NCBI GenBank assembly: GCA_944389265.1
Contig: CALXLS010000002.1
Span: 177,349-241,348 of the forward strand
DNA length: 64,000 nucleotides
DNA from: an uncultured Alphaproteobacteria bacterium
Lineage (GTDB): Bacteria; Pseudomonadota; Alphaproteobacteria; Rs-D84
Direction of reading: 5' to 3'
Shown here: one piece after another, positions 6,948-41,766 of the stretch
How the letters are laid out: each line of letters starts with the position of its first letter
How positions within the stretch are numbered: the first letter of the stretch is position 1
Position numbers and translations under genes: made by a program
The notes under the pieces: generated by a model
Database searches by the model: none
The model's input: the letters and a program-made list of their open reading frames with translations, nothing else
What the model was told of the DNA's origin: nothing

Positions 6948-9900
6948 TTAGAAATTATATCTGAACTTCAACATACCTGTCTGAGAAGTGTAATCTTCAT
7001 GCAAGTCTAAGTCATAGTTCAACGATACTTCTACACCCTTATAGTTTGCAGTCAAACCGATACCGAATTCACCACCCAAGCGAGACAGACGTTTACTGTC
7101 AACAATGTATGATGCGGCACCAGGCATTGTGACTGTTGCGATTGCTTCATCAGACAATACGTCATATGTAGCTGCCGCACGCAATTCTGGACGCAAACTT
7201 AAACCTTTTTCTGTATCGATATCAAAGACATACTTTACACCTGCGACACCTGTCAAGTAATCTGTATCGCCAACTTTGATATCTGCCAAGCCGTTATTAT
7301 AGTCGTCTTGAGAGATATGTAAGTAGCGAACACCTGCTTCTGGTGTCAAACCATTTGCAAAGTCATAACCACCCATGACCTGACCACCGAAAGATGTGAC
7401 ATCATATTCAGAGTTAACTTCAACACCGAATGCATTTGTCGTTTCTGTATAGTCCGCCATTGTGTAGTTCAATGCAGCATTTACATACCACTGTGCTGGT
7501 TTATACTGACCATATACGAATATGCTGTTGCTTTCAATATCTGTATCACGAGCATTTTCTGCGTGAACATCTGTTGAGTTATAAGCATAACCGATACCAA
7601 TTGTATAATCACCATCAATCAATGCATCTGCACCGACAGCGACTCCACGAGTATAACCATCGAATTGACCGTTCAGTTTAGATTTATTGAACAGCCCCTG
7701 CGCCCATACACCATAATCTGCATTTGCTAAATCACCACCACTACGTCCAACATTTGCATTACCGGACATACGACCAGAAGCCAAGGACAAGACCTGATTC
7801 TGAACTGATGTAGCGACAGAATGAGTAACAGGTTTATCATCTGCTTTCAACTTTGCAGATTCTGCTTCAACATATTCTGTATTACCTTCTGCCAAAGCCT
7901 GCTGAGCTACCAACGAAGCTATTCCCATTTCATAGCTATCGCTATTTGCTAATCCTGCCAATACACCTGCTGTATCTACTGCCAAGTTTGTTGCGGCTGC
8001 AATTTCTTCGACAGCTTTTGTTTCAACTACGATAGCACTGCCATCCATAGAAACATTATACAAAGCATCATTTGCATTGATTGTCAGATTAGCAATTTCA
8101 AGGTCTTCATCTACAAAGATGTTATAGACCCCAGTTGCACCTATATTCAATGTAAGTTCTGCGGAATCACCAACCGTCAAGTCACCGACCAATTTACCGT
8201 AAGACTGAGAGTTTACGATAGAAGCAGCAACATTACCATTGATGTTCATTGTACCCTGATTGATTGTGTTAGCACCGATATTCAGAGTAGCCCCTTCGTT
8301 CAAACTCAAAGAACCTGTACCTGTGATACCGCCACCAATGATGGTTGTGCCATCAGCAAAAGTCAAGGAACCTAAGTTGTGGATATCATTTGCGACACCT
8401 GCTGCAGTATTACCTGCGAAAACGTTATCACCTTGGAAAGTCAAATTGCCTTTTGTGTCGTTATAAACTGCACCACCGAATTCACCAGAAGTGTTATTCG
8501 TAAATGTTACATTTTTCAATGTTGCAGTCTGCCCTTCATAACCCACTGCAGAATTTATATTGGCAAACGCGCCACCTTTTTTACCGGCTTTATTTCCATC
8601 GAATAAAACACCGTCAATCATACCGATTTTACCAGCATTTGTAATAGCACCACCCTGTTGCACTACACCTGTCAAAGCAGTATTATTTATGAACGCCGCA
8701 TTTTCGATTTTTTCAACCGTATCTATCTGCCCAAGTGTACCGTTCCACAAAGCACCACCATTACCCCCCTGATTATATTCAAAGACAGTATCAGTAATAC
8801 TTGTTATAACACCCTGGTTTCTGATAGCGCCACCATTTGAAGCGATATTACCATAGAAATAAGAATCAGAAATAGAATTAATTGTTCCTTGTCCTAAATC
8901 AGGCAGATTAGCATTGTTTATTGCACCACCATTTGCAGAATAGTTATTCTGGAAACGCATGCCCTTTAATTCAGCAATATTACCAGAATTATACAATGCA
9001 CCACCTGCATTATCTGCACGGTTTGCATAGAACGTTGTATTTTCTGCTAATGTTAATTCGCCATCATTAAATATAGCACCACCAAAACCGCTTACATGGT
9101 CTTCTGATTGTGCCGCATTATTTACAAAGTGCCCTGTGATATTTGCAGTTCCTTTGTTATACAAAGCACCACCATAAACCTTTCCGGTATTAGAGAAAGC
9201 CAAGTTATTCTGGAAATTACCTTTTGCAGTAAATGTGCCTTCATTATAAACAGCACCACCTTGTGCGGTTGTCACATTTGTTGTAACGCTGTTTCCACCG
9301 AAATTACCTTCTACATCAACTGTTGCATTTTTACCACTTGCTTCTTTGATAGAAATAGCACCACCTGTAGAAGTTTTTGCTATATCTTTATTATCTGTCA
9401 CGGCAACAACTTTATTATTTATAAAGTCGCCTGTGATTTTATCAATAGAAACATCTGTGTTTGGTCCCGCTTTGATATAAATAGCACCACCATTCGCATA
9501 AGCATCACCAGTTGCACTATTATTTACAAAGTTACCATTAATGGAACCGATTTTTGTTGTATCACCAGTTGCCCATTTACCTTCGATATGAATCGCGCCA
9601 CCCCCAGCAGAAACTAACTTATCCTGAGAAACCATTTCATCAGAATAATCTTTGTCTTCACCGACAATTTCTGCGATTGCTGCGTTACCAACAAAATTAC
9701 CTGTGATACTTTCTATTGTACTTTGATACAAAGCCAACGCACCACCGTTTGCGGTTGCTTTACTTGCAGTTTCTGATTTAGTATGTGCAGTATTATTAGA
9801 AAAATCGCCTGTAACAGCACCAATTTCACCAAAATTATAAATAGCACCACCTTGTGCATAAACGTCATCGGTCAAAGAGGCTTTTGCATCTTTATAAGCT

Positions 9901-10781
9901 TCCGCTTTATTACCTTGGAACAAGACATTTGAAACATCAGCTATCTTACCAGTTTCATCATTAAATATAGCACCACCTGTCTTAGCAGAATTTCCTACAA
10001 ACTTAGTATTTTCTGCAATATTCAATGTGCCCTTATTATAAATAGCCCCACCTGCATTAGCTGAATTGCTTTCAAATAAAGAATTTGCACCGATATTTAC
10101 AGTATTATAAAAATCTGTTTTATCTTCTGCTTTATCATTATTTAAATTAGCAATCGCACCACCACGATTAGCAGCGGTATTTCCTTTGAACACAGATTGA
10201 CCAAGTGTTAAATTACTTCCAACAGTCACCCCATTTGATTTATCTGTCCAAATTGCGATTGCGCCACCATCTGCTTCTGTTGAATTTTTTTCAAACAGAG
10301 CGCCATCACCCATAACAAAATTTTCGGCGGCTTCAATTCCTAAAGCACCGCCTAACCATTTAGAAGAATTGCCTTTAAACACAGTATTCTTTCCGAAAGA
10401 AATATTTCTATCAGAATCTTCTGTTTCTGGAATCTTTACATATAAACCACCAGACATCTTATTAGATGTATTTCCTTCAAACGTCCAACCGTCACCTGCT
10501 GTAAACCCATTTAATGCCTTCATAGCACCACCAGAATTTACAGAAGAATTATTTTTAAAGGTTACATTATTAGCGCCATTCTTCGACAAAGAATCACCGT
10601 AACTTATGGTCAAAGCACCTGCCCTTTCATCAGCTACTTCATTCTTTTGATTTTCGAATACTTGACCTTCTTGAATATCAACAACCGCGGCCTTTGCAGA
10701 AGTCAGACCAACGGTAGAAATCATGCCACATACTGCAAAAACAGGCAGTACAGAGCATGCTTTAAGTAGTTTATTAGACAT
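6948..10781 (-). CDS. Pmp-like (polymorphic membrane protein-type) autotransporter/adhesin, 1277 aa
   Basis: Signal peptide MSNKLLKACSVLPVFAVCGMISTVGLTSAKA. More than 20 GGA[ILV] repeats (GGAIYN, GGALYN, GGAIFN...) are interleaved with FxxN motifs (FVGN, FQGN, FINN, FTNN). The C-terminal ~300 aa have beta-barrel character and end in ...MLKFRYNF. A strong AAGGAGAAAGT SD sits before the ATG. Confidence 0.85.
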   Translation of the reverse strand: MSNKLLKACSVLPVFAVCGMISTVGLTSAKAAVVDIQEGQVFENQKNEVADERAGALTISYGDSLSKNGANNVTFKNNSSVNSGGAMKALNGFTAGDGWTFEGNTSNKMSGGLYVKIPETEDSDRNISFGKNTVFKGNSSKWLGGALGIEAAENFVMGDGALFEKNSTEADGGAIAIWTDKSNGVTVGSNLTLGQSVFKGNTAANRGGAIANLNNDKAEDKTDFYNTVNIGANSLFESNSANAGGAIYNKGTLNIAENTKFVGNSAKTGGAIFNDETGKIADVSNVLFQGNKAEAYKDAKASLTDDVYAQGGAIYNFGEIGAVTGDFSNNTAHTKSETASKATANGGALALYQSTIESITGNFVGNAAIAEIVGEDKDYSDEMVSQDKLVSAGGGAIHIEGKWATGDTTKIGSINGNFVNNSATGDAYANGGAIYIKAGPNTDVSIDKITGDFINNKVVAVTDNKDIAKTSTGGAISIKEASGKNATVDVEGNFGGNSVTTNVTTAQGGAVYNEGTFTAKGNFQNNLAFSNTGKVYGGALYNKGTANITGHFVNNAAQSEDHVSGFGGAIFNDGELTLAENTTFYANRADNAGGALYNSGNIAELKGMRFQNNYSANGGAINNANLPDLGQGTINSISDSYFYGNIASNGGAIRNQGVITSITDTVFEYNQGGNGGALWNGTLGQIDTVEKIENAAFINNTALTGVVQQGGAITNAGKIGMIDGVLFDGNKAGKKGGAFANINSAVGYEGQTATLKNVTFTNNTSGEFGGAVYNDTKGNLTFQGDNVFAGNTAAGVANDIHNLGSLTFADGTTIIGGGITGTGSLSLNEGATLNIGANTINQGTMNINGNVAASIVNSQSYGKLVGDLTVGDSAELTLNIGATGVYNIFVDEDLEIANLTINANDALYNVSMDGSAIVVETKAVEEIAAATNLAVDTAGVLAGLANSDSYEMGIASLVAQQALAEGNTEYVEAESAKLKADDKPVTHSVATSVQNQVLSLASGRMSGNANVGRSGGDLANADYGVWAQGLFNKSKLNGQFDGYTRGVAVGADALIDGDYTIGIGYAYNSTDVHAENARDTDIESNSIFVYGQYKPAQWYVNAALNYTMADYTETTNAFGVEVNSEYDVTSFGGQVMGGYDFANGLTPEAGVRYLHISQDDYNNGLADIKVGDTDYLTGVAGVKYVFDIDTEKGLSLRPELRAAATYDVLSDEAIATVTMPGAASYIVDSKRLSRLGGEFGIGLTANYKGVEVSLNYDLDLHEDYTSQTGMLKFRYNF

Positions 10782-10881: not shown

Positions 10882-11119
10882 AAAAAACCGCCAAGGAAAT
10901 GGCGGTCGGGGAGTTAAGAAAATCACCCAAAAGTATGACCCCGCCAGTTTTCGGGATACCCTATTTTATAACTGACGGCTCCCCGACCTGATACGGGGTT
11001 CAGAGACAATAAATGGCGCAAATCCGCGCCGTATATCATCCCTACATCTCAGCATAAAAAAACTTATGCTGCTTTTGGGTTGGCTTTCTTACGGCCCGAA
11101 ACCACATCCCTGTGGATTC
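10882..11119 (-). ncRNA. Structured ~235-nt leader/ncRNA, copy A; unclassified riboswitch- or attenuator-like element upstream of the Pmp-like autotransporter
   Basis: Its own promoter is TTGTCT-16-TATAAT (complement 11126-11153). Conserved blocks are shared with copy B at 15170-15405. The RNA ends in terminator ACCGCCA-uuuccu-UGGCGGU plus U6 at 10882-10906. Details are in the findings. Confidence 0.6.
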
Positions 11120-11125
11120 ATAAAA

Positions 11126-11153
11126 ATTATACGAAAAGCACATAAAAAGACAA
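11126..11153 (-). promoter_or_regulatory. Sigma70-like promoter for RNA copy A
   Basis: On the minus strand: TTGTCT, a 16-nt spacer, then TATAAT. The predicted TSS is ~11119, at the AUG that opens the conserved 5' hairpin. Confidence 0.5.
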
Positions 11154-11205: not shown

Positions 11206-11279
11206 TGGGGCATAGTTTAACGGTAGAACTCCGGACTCTGACTCCGTCAGTGTTGGTTCGAATCCAGCTGCCCCAACCA
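11206..11279 (+). tRNA. tRNA-Gln (anticodon CUG)
   Basis: Cloverleaf folded by hand. Acceptor stem TGGGGCA/TGCCCCA with a U1:A72 pair, typical of tRNA-Gln. D-arm GTTT/GAAC. Anticodon loop CTCTGAC. T-arm GTTGG-TTCGAAT-CCAGC. Encoded CCA. An upstream TTGATT...TATATA promoter-like sequence is present. Confidence 0.8.
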
Positions 11280-11307
11280 ATAATTCAACCCGCCTTGTGC
11301 GGGTTTA
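11277..11307 (+). repeat. 31-bp perfect direct repeat, copy 1. Begins at the CCA end of tRNA-Gln and includes a terminator hairpin.
   Basis: CCAATAATTCAACCCGCCTTGTGCGGGTTTA. Identical to 11458-11488. Confidence 0.9.
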
Positions 11308-11457: not shown

Positions 11458-11488
11458 CCAATAATTCAACCCGCCTTGTGCGGGTTTA
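11458..11488 (+). repeat. 31-bp perfect direct repeat, copy 2
   Basis: Identical to 11277-11307 and lies 181 bp downstream. Contains the hairpin CCCGC-cttgtg-GCGGG followed by TTT. Confidence 0.9.
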
Positions 11489-15109: not shown

Positions 15110-15132
15110 AGCCCCCTTACTGGGGGCTTTTT
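15110..15132 (+). terminator. Rho-independent terminator
   Basis: AGCCCCC-ttact-GGGGGCT followed by TTTT. Confidence 0.7.
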
Positions 15133-15134
15133 CA

Positions 15135-15163
15135 TTGACATAAAAAGCAAAAATAAATATAAT
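15135..15163 (+). promoter_or_regulatory. Consensus sigma70 promoter for RNA copy B
   Basis: TTGACA (15135-15140), a 17-nt spacer, then TATAAT (15158-15163). Predicted TSS ~15170. Confidence 0.6.
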
Positions 15164-15169
15164 TAAAAT

Positions 15170-15405
15170 AAATCAATGGGGACATTGGTTTGGGGCTGTA
15201 GCAAGCCTTTCTACAAGCGGTATTTTATACCGGATCCGCGTATATAAGCGGTGCACATATGCACCTTTTCTTGTATCCCCGTACTGCGAAAGGTCGGGGA
15301 GCCGCCTGCCATAAAACAGGGATTCCCCGAAAGCAGTGCGGAATCAATCTTGTAGATGATTTGCTAACTCCCCGACCGCCATCAAGTCCTTGTTGGCGTT
15401 TTTTA
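15170..15405 (+). ncRNA. Structured ~235-nt leader RNA, copy B. Unclassified riboswitch- or attenuator-like element fused to the 5' end of the cysteine-rich secreted protein gene at 15428.
   Basis: Homologous to copy A, with covarying helices. It ends in terminator CGCCAUCAAGUCCUUGUUGGCG plus U6 (15377-15404). The downstream start codon is only 22 nt beyond the U-tract, with no promoter in between, so gene expression requires read-through. Confidence 0.6.
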
Positions 15406-15427
15406 ACAATCCAGGAAGGCCGAAATC

Positions 15428-16378
15428 ATGAAAAAATTTATAACCTCTGTACTTTACACGACAATATGTATATTTGCATATTTCCCGGCGAACGCAGAAC
15501 TTTGTTGTATTGTAAATGACATGTTCGTTGGAAAATGCCCAACAGCAGAAGACCTTGATTGGGGTTCTGCCGCACCAGATCCAAAATGCATTTGCACAGC
15601 TGGGGTTCCACCTCTTTGCAAAATGACAGAAATTTTTAGTCGGTGTCCAGATGGGACCGTTGCGGGTCAATATATAAAAGACTGCACCTGTACAGAATGC
15701 CAAAGTGGTGGTGGCGGAACAGGTGGTGGCTCACTATTACCATGTACTGCATGTGATGAAGTTGGTTGGCAAAGTAACGGCACAGGCTATGAAATTAAAA
15801 AAACAGGCGGGACATGCAGCGGCAACACAAGTTCATATCACGGTACCTGCAAAGGTCAAACAATAGAATATCGGTGTGCACCTGGTTATTGTGGTACAAC
15901 AACTGACGGTAAAACAGGTTGCGTCAAAGCAGATTATGAAGATTTTTTGGTAAACTGTAGAGTTATAGACAAATTCGAAAACGAATGCCCTTCTGGTGTT
16001 ACTAATTGCATATGTACAAATACATACCCCAAAATATGCACCGTACTTGATATATTTGATACCCCGCCTTCCTGGGCACAAAATTACTTTTGTGGAACGA
16101 ATTATTGGGTTAGTACAGCAACAGGTCACGAACAGAACAAAATAGTAAATATCGAAGGAGAATCTTGCACATCCTTCTCTCAATCCTATAGATGCTCTGC
16201 CGGCTATTACGGTTCTACAACGAATGGAACTTCTGGTTGTTCAAAATGTCCTATACCTGGTACAAGTCTTGCCGGACAAAATTCCGCCATTGGTCAGTGT
16301 TATATTCCATCAAACACCCCTCAAACCGACACAACAGGGCAATATATATACAGCTTAAATTGTTATTATACGAACTAA
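15428..16378 (+). CDS. Secreted cysteine-rich protein (316 aa)
   Basis: Signal peptide MKKFITSVLYTTICIFAYFPANA. AGGAAGG SD. About 40 Cys, with CC and CxC doublets and a GGGGTGGG linker. Preceded by RNA copy B. Confidence 0.75.
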   Translation: MKKFITSVLYTTICIFAYFPANAELCCIVNDMFVGKCPTAEDLDWGSAAPDPKCICTAGVPPLCKMTEIFSRCPDGTVAGQYIKDCTCTECQSGGGGTGGGSLLPCTACDEVGWQSNGTGYEIKKTGGTCSGNTSSYHGTCKGQTIEYRCAPGYCGTTTDGKTGCVKADYEDFLVNCRVIDKFENECPSGVTNCICTNTYPKICTVLDIFDTPPSWAQNYFCGTNYWVSTATGHEQNKIVNIEGESCTSFSQSYRCSAGYYGSTTNGTSGCSKCPIPGTSLAGQNSAIGQCYIPSNTPQTDTTGQYIYSLNCYYTN

Positions 16379-39895: not shown

Positions 39896-40273
39896 TTATT
39901 TACCCTTTACTGCGGAACCAGCAACTACAACGCGCTTACCCTTACGAGTACGAGCATTTGTCTGAGTACGCTGACCGCGAACCGGTAAACGGTTACGATG
40001 ACGAATACCGCGATATGTTTTCAAATCTTGCAAACGTTTAATATTCATTGCAACTTCACGGCGAACATCACCTTCTACTTTAAAGTTTTCTTCTATATAT
40101 TTAGAAATTTTAACAACTTCCTCATCAGTCAAGTCTTTCGCGCGCAGACCATCTTTCAATTTCAAAGCCCTGCAAATCTGAGCAGACTTTGCAGGTCCAA
40201 TACCATGAATGTATTGCAACGCGATTTCAATGCGCTTTTCTGTAGGAATGTTAACACCTGCTATACGTGCCAT
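39896..40273 (-). CDS. rpsM: 30S ribosomal protein S13
   Basis: [34 protein letters not shown]...[25 protein letters not shown] is canonical S13. Confidence 0.95.
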
Positions 40274-40449
40274 TTTTCATTTTCCTTTTTATTTATTGCG
40301 GAACATAATTTTATAAGTTCCGATACCAAACTCTTAAAAAACTGCCGTCAGATTTTCAAGAGTATTTTATTTTGCTGCATTATTTTATACAAAATGCTGC
40401 AAAAGTCAAATTTTGTTTTGCTTCTCATCAAGACACATAAAGACAATCT

Positions 40450-41766
40450 TTAACGGAAGCGACCTTTTTTCTGTGCGCTATTAATAACGCTTTTATATTG
40501 CTTTGCGACCAAATAAGACTGAACTTGATTCATAGTATCCAAGACAACACCAGCAACGATTAAAACGCTGGTACCCCCGATTGTCAAAGGCATTCCCATA
40601 TGAGCATTCAGAATTATTGGTACAACGCAGACAACGACTAAGTATAAAACACCTATTGCCGTTGTCCGAGAAACAACTGCATCTAAATAATGCATAGTCT
40701 GTTCACCTGGGCGAACACCTGGTATATAACCACCTGCATTTTTCAGATTATTACTTGTTTCTTCTGAATTAAATATAACCGCAGTCTGGAAATATGCAAA
40801 GAACGCGATTAAAATTGTATATGTTATGATATAAGACCATGCACCATAAGTAAAGAAAGCCATAATATTTTGTACAATTACATTTTCGCTTTGCGCGAAA
40901 CGCTGTATAAACGCCGGCAACATCATAATACTTGCTGCAAAAACAGGTCCCATAACACCAGACATATTAACTTTGATAGGCAGATAAGAAGCATTTGTAT
41001 TCATGACACCGTTCGCCATAACCTGACGAGGGTATAAAATTTGAATACGACGTTGTGCCTGTTCAAAAAACGCAATCAAAGCTATGATACCGATAACGAA
41101 TGCTATTACCAGCGCAATCATCGCAGGTGAAATTTGTCCGACAGACCCCAAAGATAACAACTGAGCAATACCTCCTGGGACTTCTGCTATAATACCTGCA
41201 AAGATTAACAATGATGCACCCTGCCCTATACCACGTGCTGTAATTTGTTCTGCCAACCACATAACAAATACGGTACCACCGACCAGAGCAATTATAGCGG
41301 ACAATTCGAAAGCAAATCCTGGGTTAACAACCGCGGCAACCCCATTTACTGGTGCCATTGATTCCAAACCACGAACTACTGCCCAACCTTGAACTACGGC
41401 CAAGAAAACTGCTAAATAACGAGTATACTGGTTGATTTTGATACGCCCTGATTCACCTTCTTTGCGCAATTCGTTTAAAGATTTGCTTGTAGCCGTTAAT
41501 AATTGCAGAACGATTGACGCAGAGATATAAGGGAAGATGTTCAATGCCAAAACAGACATACGCGACAAGGAACCACCCGAAAACATATCAAACATTCCCA
41601 TCATACCACTGCCTTCACCACTAAACAAGTGAAGTACCGCAGAAGCATTAACACCTGGCAGAGGAATAAAAGAACCTATACGATACACAATTAACGCACC
41701 CAGTGTAAACAGTATGCGTTTTTGTAAATCAGATAAGTTTCCAAAAAAGTTTCTTAAAAATTTCAT
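40450..41766 (-). CDS. secY: Preprotein translocase subunit SecY
   Basis: 438 aa, ten TM segments. The N-terminus ...LQKRILFTLGALIVYRIGSFIPLPGVN is typical of SecY. Confidence 0.95.
   Translation of the reverse strand: MKFLRNFFGNLSDLQKRILFTLGALIVYRIGSFIPLPGVNASAVLHLFSGEGSGMMGMFDMFSGGSLSRMSVLALNIFPYISASIVLQLLTATSKSLNELRKEGESGRIKINQYTRYLAVFLAVVQGWAVVRGLESMAPVNGVAAVVNPGFAFELSAIIALVGGTVFVMWLAEQITARGIGQGASLLIFAGIIAEVPGGIAQLLSLGSVGQISPAMIALVIAFVIGIIALIAFFEQAQRRIQILYPRQVMANGVMNTNASYLPIKVNMSGVMGPVFAASIMMLPAFIQRFAQSENVIVQNIMAFFTYGAWSYIITYTILIAFFAYFQTAVIFNSEETSNNLKNAGGYIPGVRPGEQTMHYLDAVVSRTTAIGVLYLVVVCVVPIILNAHMGMPLTIGGTSVLIVAGVVLDTMNQVQSYLVAKQYKSVINSAQKKGRFR

Follow-up and report, generated by a model that had tools for sequence, protein, structure and literature searches.

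A family of structured leader RNAs upstream of surface-protein genes in Rs-D84 gut Alphaproteobacteria is a candidate transcription-attenuation switch

Two homologous leader RNAs in one genomic window

We analysed a 64-kb window (the whole stretch examined, 64,000 nucleotides (nt) of contig CALXLS010000002.1) from an uncultured alphaproteobacterium of the lineage Rs-D84. The window carries two copies, here called A and B, of a structured RNA that we refer to as the leader RNA. Copy A lies on the minus strand upstream of an autotransporter gene and copy B on the plus strand upstream of a gene for a Cys-rich protein. The main features of the two loci are as follows (aa, amino acids).

11126-11153, minus strand: copy A promoter (-35 TTGTCT, 16-nt spacer, -10 TATAAT; promoter scan 10/12)
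10882-11119, minus strand: copy A, whole leader RNA (~238 nt, first hairpin through U-run; nhmmer match 11119-10881, E 1.5e-41)
10882-10907, minus strand: copy A terminator, GACCGCC-AUUUCCUU-GGCGGUU followed by the U-run (terminator scan match 10907-10886)
6948-10781, minus strand: gene downstream of copy A, encoding a 1277-aa autotransporter (Pfam Autotransporter 5.5e-33, Chlam_PMP repeats 7.1e-28)
15135-15163, plus strand: copy B promoter (TTGACA, 17-nt spacer, TATAAT; promoter scan 12/12)
15170-15404, plus strand: copy B, whole leader RNA (~235 nt; nhmmer match 15171-15404, E 6.5e-39)
15375-15400, plus strand: copy B terminator, ACCGCC...GGCGUU followed by the U-run
15428-16378, plus strand: gene downstream of copy B, encoding a Cys-rich protein of 316 aa that has a signal peptide and matches nothing in Pfam

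An earlier note on this DNA had described two opposite-strand homologues, and its coordinates and sequence blocks proved correct in our profile search; the copies share 79% column identity in a pairwise alignment. Within the window, GGTCGGGGAGCCG and AACTCCCCGACCGCCAT are each found at exactly two places (chance expectations 0.11 and 0.03), and the profile search matched only A and B, with no third copy in the 64 kb. Compared with dinucleotide shuffles, the minimum free energy (MFE) folds have z-scores of -6.77 (copy A) and -6.57 (copy B). The sigma70-like promoter that the note had assigned to each copy was found by the promoter scan and is conserved across the family described below, in whose alignment the promoter TTG..17..TAtAAT ends 4-7 nt before the first hairpin. 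Transcription of copy A would start at about G11119. The copy B promoter follows directly after the terminator (15110-15128, terminator scan) of the upstream DUF1015 gene. The gene downstream of copy B has its start codon 28 nt after the terminator stem, too near for a separate promoter; that of the copy A gene lies about 100 nt after the U-run, and orthologous loci keep the leader with a gap of 102-114 nt.

The leader RNA family

Both copies are members of a new, previously uncatalogued family of leader RNAs, which are about 230 nt long and doubly pseudoknotted and have their own promoter and terminator. We scanned one genome per species with a pattern taken from the 3' domain and obtained at least 117 loci, about 103 of which are non-identical true copies (loci are given L numbers where they must be told apart). 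A second scan, of metagenomes and with helix P1 left free, returned 93 loci and 49 further distinct full-length copies. The search for further homologues that the earlier note had proposed thus yielded about 150 distinct copies overall, with downstream genes biased to surface and secretion functions.

These copies come from gut metagenome-assembled genomes (MAGs) of the order Rs-D84 (Candidatus (Ca.) Enterousia and relatives). The hosts in the first scan are nearly all MAGs labelled Alphaproteobacteria, 'Rickettsiales bacterium' or Candidatus Enterousia, and the sources are the rumen, colon and faeces of deer, sheep, goat, yak, buffalo, horse, chicken, mouse and human, together with termite gut. 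Ca. Enterousia is a member of the uncultured order Rs-D84, in which genomes are mostly <1 Mb (PMC12306168). Several assemblies give 2-3 loci each despite the strict first pattern. As a rough estimate of copy number per genome, flanking sequence carries about 10 further copies per Mb, and our 64-kb window has two. Genes of the window also occur on metagenome contigs, and the core and 3' flank of copy A are identical in a MAG labelled 'uncultured proteobacterium' (L087).

Conservation spans the entire ~230-nt RNA and its promoter, beyond the 3' domain set by the search pattern, at a mean column identity among copies of 45% in the family alignment. The first pattern imposed CGGGGNGC, ATAAAA and CCCCGNCCNCC, so these columns cannot be called conserved from the first set. 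The second pattern, meant to remove this bias, was confined to P2, the J-region and the start of the P5 3' strand (helices are listed below). The AUAAAA loop is the sole element imposed in both sets, and pattern-free copies show AUACAA and AUAUAA. Candidate metagenome patterns with hundreds of expected chance matches were set aside. Alignments were built with MAFFT (column-preserving) and nhmmer; P4 is poorly aligned.

The family includes a short variant class of ~165 nt, represented by L069:2983-3150, L038:6158-6330 and L020:5767-5940 (all on the minus strand). Members of this class have their own promoter and a different 5' hairpin and are without P3 and P4, and they keep S1/P5, P6, P1, P2 and the terminator. 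What the short class retains delimits the minimal core of the leader RNA. Short and long forms are found together in the same MAGs.

Some copies lie in other settings. Full-length copies are present on two IMG/VR viral-class contigs, L008 (IMGVR_UViG_3300024272_005796) and L009 (IMGVR_UViG_3300029904_000303), and the P2 loop of L009 is AUACAA, as in the Rfam family sRNA-Xcc1 (discussed below). These contigs may be prophages of Rs-D84 bacteria, or they may have been misclassified. True copies are also found in bins of non-alphaproteobacterial taxa, namely Endomicrobiia bacterium MS502-22 (L055) and a Muribaculaceae MAG (L063), which reflects either mis-binning or horizontal transfer.

A covarying fold with two pseudoknots

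RNAalifold applied to 97 sequences gave 42 pairs, 27 of them with compensatory changes, and missed the most informative part of the fold. When mutual information was calculated over all pairs of alignment columns, the highest values belonged to 50:307, 48:309 and 49:308. These pairs, which form helix P5, show all four Watson-Crick types and are 98-99% paired. The next highest values fell on 67-69:289-291 and 61-64:293-296, which form helix P6. P5 joins the loop of stem S1 to the U-rich strand just 5' of the P1 3' strand, and P6 lies beside it. Because S1 itself covaries (pairs 43:55 and 44:54), S1 and P5 constitute an H-type pseudoknot. P5 and P6 also cross P1, and the fold is therefore doubly pseudoknotted.

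Our full model has 60 pairs in 12 helices. In the alignment 91.8% of its cells are paired, compared with 78.3% after shuffling of columns and 36-48% after a shift of the partners by 1-3 columns, and 45 of the 60 pairs change on both sides; none of 500 shuffles reached any of five measures. The 49 independent metagenome copies give the same picture, with pairing in P5 of 96% (73% shuffled), in P6 of 72% (47%) and in P2a of 94% (74%). The sensor part of the fold is laid out as follows in copy A, from 5' to 3', with the corresponding 3' region of copy B given last.

11099-11119, minus strand: P0, the 5'-terminal hairpin, GAAUCCACA-GGGA-UGUGGUUU, with a GNRA cap; 9/9 pairs change on both sides
11081-11097, minus strand: stem S1 (GGGC/GCCA), whose loop UAAGAAA is the P5 5' strand
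11072-11080, minus strand: P6 5' strand, ACCCAAAAG, pairing with CUUUUGGGU at 10925-10933; 7/7 P6 pairs have double changes
11002-11070, minus strand: P3 (11051-11070) and P4 (11002-11050), variable in length; P3 and the inner P4 stem covary
10941-10978, minus strand: P2 and P2a, with a conserved internal loop UAUAAAAUA / GAAA; P2a is GGGUAUCCC
10915-10933, minus strand: 3' strands of P6 (10925-10933) and P5 (10915-10921), with a conserved GAU between them
15349-15404, plus strand: copy B 3' region, comprising the P6 3' strand (15349-15357), GAU, the P5 3' strand (15361-15366), segment 3 (CUCCCCGACC, 15368-15377), the terminator and the U-run

The compensatory changes can be followed between the two copies of the window. 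P5 is UAAGAAA/UUUCUUA in A and UAGCAA/UUGCUA in B, and P6 is ACCCAAAAG/CUUUUGGGU in A and UCUACAAG/CUUGUAGA in B. In the family alignment, double changes occur in 6/7 pairs of P2 and in 3/3 pairs of P2a. The P0 loop variants in the alignment, GGGA, GAGA and GGAA, are all GNRA tetraloops, a pattern that suggests a tertiary docking role for the cap rather than a GGA protein-binding site.

Every helix named in the earlier note is backed by covariation in about 100-150 homologues: the 5' hairpin with its GGGA loop, the 10-bp P1, the compensatory internal helix (our P2), the GGG/CCC hairpin (our P2a) and the terminator. The fold drawn there was incomplete, however, as it was without the pseudoknotted helices P5 and P6 and without the hairpins P3 and P4. 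Its view that the element is a structured RNA rather than coding sequence agrees with the absence of a leader open reading frame (ORF) with a conserved start: we found no conserved leader peptide, and no start column is common to >19% of 143 copies. Ribosome-mediated leader-peptide attenuation was accordingly rejected, as there is no conserved ORF and the stems covary at all codon positions.

Several other pairings were considered and discarded. The local hairpin AUCA/UGAU predicted by RNAalifold has no double changes, varying on one side only (A to G), and it is incompatible with the covarying P6. A helix of the 5' UCGGGG and the CCCCGA of the 'mid' segment (segment 1, below) was rejected as the main structure: S1 covaries independently (GGUGC/GCAC in L083, GGUGU/ACACC in L109) and the UUC is engaged in P0. 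There is no covariation for a kissing contact of the GGGA loop with the UCCC of mid; copies with a GAGA loop keep UCCC, and UCUC mids occur with GGGA loops. In a tRNA-like GCCA end after P1, the A is conserved in only about 70% of copies.

The dinucleotide that follows P2 (AA or GG, in GGAAUCA or GGGGUCA; columns 280-281) shows Watson-Crick-compatible covariation with columns 45 and 134, which are each U or C. In alignment A2 these columns (45, 134 and 280-281) correspond to about 11093, 11026 and 10939-10940 of copy A. The signal could reflect a tertiary contact, or it could be a subfamily signature only. In the GG subfamily, CGGGGU is a further possible partner of the C-rich segments and is used as such in the MFE fold of copy A.

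The same data bear on the idea that the element is a repeated piece of DNA, such as a mobile promoter cassette, a repeat resembling a miniature inverted-repeat transposable element or a recombination site, whose conservation would reflect recent spread. There are multiple copies per small genome, some copies adjoin tRNA genes and two are on viral-class contigs. The copies are nevertheless highly diverged (45% mean column identity) and still show compensatory changes in 45/60 pairs, and they are strictly oriented with respect to the gene that follows. The flanks that were read showed neither terminal inverted repeats nor target duplications, though no dedicated repeat search was made in them. 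We regard this explanation as extremely improbable.

Four consecutive segments with mutually exclusive pairings

Four segments of the leader RNA succeed one another in the order (1) mid, UCCCCGAY; (2) the P1 5' strand, GGUCGGGGRGC; (3) the P1 3' strand, CUCCCCGACC; and (4) GGCGGU with the U-run. Segments 1 to 3 lie at the following positions.

10992-11001, minus strand: copy A segment 1 (mid, anti-P1), GAACCCCGUA, the alternative partner of the P1 5' strand
10979-10988, minus strand: copy A segment 2, the P1 5' strand, GGUCGGGGAG, pairing with 10904-10913
10904-10913, minus strand: copy A segment 3, the P1 3' strand, CUCCCCGACC, whose last three nt (ACC) are also the base of the terminator
15276-15301, plus strand: copy B segments 1 and 2, consisting of UCCCCGUAC (15276-15284), a spacer and GGUCGGGGAG (15292-15301)

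P1 is 99% paired among sequences that were gathered without a P1 constraint. Its 3' strand, segment 3, runs directly into the terminator 5' arm, ACCGCC, so that columns 320-322 also pair with 356-358 and the overlap between P1 and terminator amounts to 2-3 nt. In the unconstrained set the P1 pairs 200:321 and 201:320 are 100% paired, and they share nucleotides with the terminator pairs 320:358 and 321:357. The terminator itself has the features of an intrinsic terminator, a G+C-rich covarying stem with a U-run behind it: pair 323:355 of the stem covaries (GC 80, AU 12), and at least 6 U are present in the 9 nt after the stem in 84% of copies.

The earlier note had suggested that the CCCCG segment is an alternative partner of the CGGGG strand of P1, and in variant copies this segment does change jointly with both P1 strands. 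L167 carries a triple change, with UCGGGAA/UUCCCGA in P1 and UUCCCGA in mid. In L164 and L199, and in L021 and L061, U201C (with A320G) is matched by an A-to-G change in mid too. The short class has lost one G:C in each of the three segments. L020 has GUG:CAC in place of GGU:ACC as its outer P1 pairs, and the terminator arm is rebuilt accordingly. The rule that mid and P1 change together is strong, with exceptions that are considered below.

We estimated the energies of the competing structures as means over 94 copies. The duplex of segments 1 and 2 has -14.0 kcal/mol, versus -8.1 kcal/mol with segment 1 shuffled, and P1 (segments 2 and 3) has -20.7 kcal/mol. The terminator has -11.3 kcal/mol with ACC and -5.5 kcal/mol without it. 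The 1:2 duplex with the full terminator therefore comes to about -25.3 kcal/mol and P1 with the crippled terminator to about -26.2 kcal/mol, so that the two states are nearly iso-energetic. The spacer between segments 1 and 2 has a median length of 9 nt. By computation, the leader RNA has an expression platform in which terminator and antiterminator are mutually exclusive, alongside the generic mark of a riboswitch, a covariation-supported structured domain in a 5' leader.

In the unconstrained set GGUCGGGGRGC is present in 27/49 copies; the P1 core is near-invariant and its changes are mostly wobble. This constancy fits a sequence with three or more partners, or direct recognition.

Genes downstream of the leader RNA

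We assessed the arrangement of the leader RNA and its neighbouring genes across the family. Among the 106 copies with enough downstream sequence, 97 are followed by a Shine-Dalgarno (SD) sequence and an ORF of at least 50 aa on the same strand. In 83 of the 106 the start codon lies no more than 40 nt from the terminator 3' arm, and the median distance is 29 nt; copy B is typical in this, and copy A with its orthologues is the exception. This leaves no room for a separate promoter, and the genes must therefore be transcribed through the element. From the close, same-strand ribosome-binding sites (RBSs) and starts we conclude that the RNA most likely is a cis-acting read-through switch.

The location 5' of genes for surface or secreted proteins, described in the earlier note for the two window copies, holds across the family. 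The 88 distinct downstream proteins are mutually unrelated, and at least 46 have a signal peptide by a crude rule, with visibly more on inspection. A Pfam scan of 76 downstream proteins left most without a match. The matches that were obtained are to GT2 (four proteins), GT8, Stealth, LicD, N6_N4 DNA methylase (three proteins), autotransporter / Chlam_PMP, YadA anchor, OmpA, ankyrin repeats, trypsin and HTH. The downstream set consists of cell-surface, secretion and host-interaction genes, a repertoire that resembles the 'contingency gene' set of host-adapted pathogens.

The RBS regions of the leader genes (-20 to -1; for example, window positions 15408-15427) are rich in G-runs, with GGGG in 51% and GGGA in 44%, compared with 20% and 19% for 242 other genes in the same family loci. 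These runs are complementary to the C-rich segments of the leader (UCCCC in mid and in the P1 3' strand). An unpaired C-rich segment could also mask the SD sequence, which would add a translational layer.

An alternative to cis action is that the copies form a multi-copy family of trans-acting small RNAs (sRNAs). The terminator would then always work, the ~235-nt RNA would be the product and would act on other messenger RNAs (mRNAs) or sequester a protein, and the proximity to genes would be incidental or a by-product of read-through. The anatomy of the leader RNA, with its own promoter, a 5'-terminal hairpin and a terminator with U-run, is that of a stable sRNA. Its nearest Rfam relative, sRNA-Xcc1, is called a trans-acting sRNA in the title of Chen et al. 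2011, and homologues in Xylella were detected as discrete transcripts (PMC12189769). Such an RNA does not account for the 83/106 copies placed directly before the SD and start of a gene that has to be transcribed through them. Moreover, the three-way complementarity and the overlap of P1 with the terminator serve no role in a plain sRNA, and there is no conserved single-stranded seed, as most conserved nucleotides are in helices or junctions. We consider a trans-acting role unlikely as the explanation of the family, although it can coexist with the cis-acting one.

Relationship to sRNA-Xcc1

We used Rfam 15 to look for known relatives. At gathering thresholds there was no match at the elements in the window or in 18 family loci. 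The cmscan runs on both copies likewise bear out the earlier statement that no known riboswitch matches: riboswitch and T-box families (c-di-GMP-I/II, ydaO, ZTP, glycine, fluoride, guanidine and others) were not listed for either copy even at E <= 10. The earlier note had missed a sub-threshold match of the 3' domain to sRNA-Xcc1 (RF02221). In E-value mode there is a full-length alignment of the 3' ~93 nt to RF02221 (model 1-87) at 42.5 bits in copy A and 30.9 bits in copy B, against a cut-off of 53, with E-values of 3e-6 (~500 nt searched) and 1.6e-3 (~450 nt searched). The match covers about 40% of the leader RNA, the part with P1 and P2/P2a. Because of this distant, sub-threshold resemblance of its 3' ~90 nt, the leader RNA is not wholly without known relatives. 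The remaining listed matches that overlap the RNAs are weak, score far under their cut-offs and belong to unrelated families (for example, Phe_leader, ncS54 and CncR1).

The resemblance raises the question of whether the leader RNA is a plain, already known member of RF02221 with lineage-specific extra 5' sequence. In addition to the two window copies, four other family members score 34-46 bits over the model. The two RNAs share a P1 of the type GGNCGGGG / CCCCGNCC, a P2 with an AUA(A/C)AA (AUAMAA) internal loop opposite a GAA strand, a small G/C hairpin on top and a U-rich linker before the P1 3' strand. Both are also located in the 5' leader of a same-strand gene.

Against membership, none of the copies tested reaches the gathering score of 53 bits, whereas canonical Xcc1 copies from plasmid records score 69-73 bits, and in the reverse direction the family sequence profile gives no significant match to canonical Xcc1 (E 3.8). 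Xcc1 is a three-way-junction RNA of ~87 nt and the leader is about 230 nt long, adding P0, S1, P3, P4, the anti-P1 segment and the overlapping terminator. Its third arm is of another kind: in Rfam's model it is a local hairpin, whereas in the leader RNA the corresponding strand pairs with the 5' domain through the two pseudoknotted helices P5 and P6, which have the best covariation in the RNA (48-50:307-309 and 61-69:289-296), and the sole local stem that RNAalifold places in that arm is AUCA/UGAU, with no double changes. The setting is also different, with Xcc1 in integron cassettes, plasmids and prophages of Proteobacteria and the leader RNA chromosomal, multi-copy and restricted to Rs-D84 gut Alphaproteobacteria. 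Plain membership is thus very unlikely. We do not file the leader RNA under RF02221 and regard Xcc1 as its closest known relative, or possibly a minimal version.

Xcc1 is placed upstream of symE in Xanthomonas cassettes (bioRxiv 10.1101/2025.06.18.660453), and in the literature the motif is located upstream of an ORF6N protein gene in APSE phage. We observed canonical Xcc1 at L128:1482-1572 and L129:1498-1580, on plasmids of Nitratidesulfovibrio vulgaris and Pseudomonas aeruginosa, with 70-73 bits. Both are about 45-55 nt upstream of a same-strand coding sequence, one for a hypothetical protein and one for a BRO-family protein. By its placement, Xcc1 itself may be a cis-acting leader instead of, or besides, a trans-acting sRNA.

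Comparison with other regulatory RNAs

The arrangement of four consecutive segments with mutually exclusive pairings is that of trp-type attenuators (1:2 / 2:3 / 3:4) and of ON riboswitches such as the adenine riboswitch pbuE. As in attenuators and riboswitch platforms, the 3' strand of the helix that closes the sensor overlaps the terminator 5' arm, and an intrinsic terminator with a U-run stands just before the regulated gene. Unlike the classical examples, the leader RNA has no leader peptide, its sensor is much larger and doubly pseudoknotted, and the overlap with the terminator is only 2-3 nt. The c-di-GMP-I/II riboswitches (GEMM) offer a functional analogy only, with many copies per genome before diverse genes for surface, adhesion and secreted proteins; the fold is unrelated to GEMM-I and GEMM-II, and neither was matched in Rfam at E <= 10.

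A further comparison is with put (phage HK022), EAR (Bacillus subtilis) and RfaH/ops (JUMPstart), promoter-proximal elements before surface polysaccharide, adhesin and accessory genes. EAR contains a pseudoknot. The leader RNA could by analogy be a constitutive structured 5' leader without sensing, acting through polymerase-modifying antitermination as put and EAR do, or as a module that stabilizes mRNA or tunes translation before horizontally acquired surface genes. Its regulon of adhesins and autotransporters, glycosyltransferases and accessory genes resembles those of RfaH/JUMPstart and UpxY-type antitermination, the large pseudoknotted fold sits at a fixed distance from the promoter, and the near-invariance of P1 is as expected of a site recognized by a macromolecule. 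However, there is no sequence or model match to put, EAR or RfaH/ops, and those systems are without a competition between anti-P1, P1 and terminator. The selected complementarity of segments 1 and 2 and the closeness of the two folds in energy mark a switch and not a static element, and many downstream units are apparently single short genes that would gain little from processive antitermination. We give a constitutive leader little credence.

Two specific candidates were rejected. The GGCGGU of the terminator recalls RfaH ops, of which only the first 6 nt match, and it is explained by pairing with ACCGCC in the terminator stem. A CsrA sponge (CsrB/RsmY-type), suggested by ACAGGGAUGU in the first hairpin of copy A, was rejected because GGA is found in the P0 loop alone and that loop is GAGA (or GGAA or GAAA) in at least 11 copies; the GNRA shape is conserved and not GGA.

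A proposed attenuation mechanism

We propose that each copy is, on balance probably, a cis-acting leader RNA that functions as a transcription-attenuation switch. Transcription would begin at the RNA's own sigma-70-type promoter and produce a large sensor domain comprising P0, the S1/P5 pseudoknot, P6, P3, P4, P1 and P2/P2a with its conserved A-rich internal loop. Because segment 1 emerges first in transcription and only a short spacer follows it, it would be the first to capture segment 2. If this pairing persisted, segments 3 and 4 would form the full terminator and an RNA of roughly 235 nt would be released. If instead the large fold (P5, P6, P2 and the junctions) assembled, P1 would displace segment 1 and deprive the terminator of its basal ACC pairs, and RNA polymerase would read through the crippled terminator into the gene that starts about 30 nt downstream. 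Termination would on this model be conditional, the state with P1 formed would be ON, and an effector would exist.

Several points weigh against this mechanism or the fold on which it builds. We infer its conditionality from architecture alone. The mid/P1 rule is broken in L035 and L079, in which mid CCCCA occurs with C202, and in L026, L044, L075 and L105, in which C201 occurs with A177/A320. Support for P1 pairing in the sequences comes from one covarying pair and a few variant copies. P5 and P6 could be alternative rather than simultaneous structures. Both alignments derive from pattern scans, which imposed some of the conserved columns. Copy A and its orthologues are ~100 nt from the gene, and there may be a second promoter in between. 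Finally, the downstream genes are functionally diverse and point to no metabolite.

With regard to what the putative switch might respond to, the effector is possibly a small-molecule or ion ligand, which would make the RNA a true riboswitch. An RNA-binding protein or other macromolecule seems a more doubtful effector, and we would not expect the behaviour to be purely kinetic or a constitutive partial read-through. That the leader RNA is a riboswitch is a hypothesis, for which it is a good orphan candidate. Pursued further, the hypothesis leads to a new riboswitch class in which a doubly pseudoknotted aptamer of ~230 nt would detect a signalling molecule or a cue from the host or gut and serve as the master ON/OFF control of a host-interaction regulon, with Xcc1 as a minimal cis-acting version of the same aptamer; this extended proposal is speculative and rather unlikely to hold in full.

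Other features of the window

Next to copy A, a divergent tRNA-Gln(CTG) gene lies at 11206-11279 on the plus strand, 87 nt from the start of the leader RNA. The hairpin AACCCGCCTTGTGCGGGTT that follows this tRNA (11287-11305, plus strand) recurs 181 nt downstream (11468-11486, plus strand), and T-arm fragments resembling TGGTTCGA lie between the two hairpins. The repeated hairpin and the fragments may be the scar of an integration at the tRNA. tRNA genes adjoin the leader at other family loci too (L089 and L021).

Elsewhere, the minus strand of the window contains at 40241-40350 a match to the Alpha operon ribosome-binding-site leader (RF00140; its 43.2 bits exceed the threshold of 38). It is situated between the ORF at 40450-41766 and the next minus-strand ORF downstream (39896-40273), in an apparent ribosomal-protein cluster. 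RF00140 was reportedly described from E. coli, which makes a match in an alphaproteobacterium notable.

Implications

For RNA biology, the leader family offers a new fold that is well supported, combining two pseudoknots and a GNRA cap with a P1 whose sequence is unusually constrained, together with a clean three-partner switch and an orphan effector to find. It also allows sRNA-Xcc1, a motif that is annotated in many pathogens, plasmids and phages and is poorly understood, to be re-read in a testable way as a cis-acting leader.

Rs-D84 bacteria (Ca. Enterousia) are uncultured and are common gut inhabitants of ruminants, horses, chickens, humans, mice and termites. Their small genomes are expected to encode few protein regulators. 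The regulon of the leader RNA is made up of the cell-surface and host-interaction genes of these genome-reduced gut bacteria, and, were the riboswitch proposal true, it would cover adhesins, secreted proteins, surface glycosylation and DNA methylases in regulator-poor, sub-1-Mb gut Alphaproteobacteria. The leader RNA, with perhaps ten or more copies per genome before surface genes, is probably the main regulatory device by which these bacteria meet host or partner cells.

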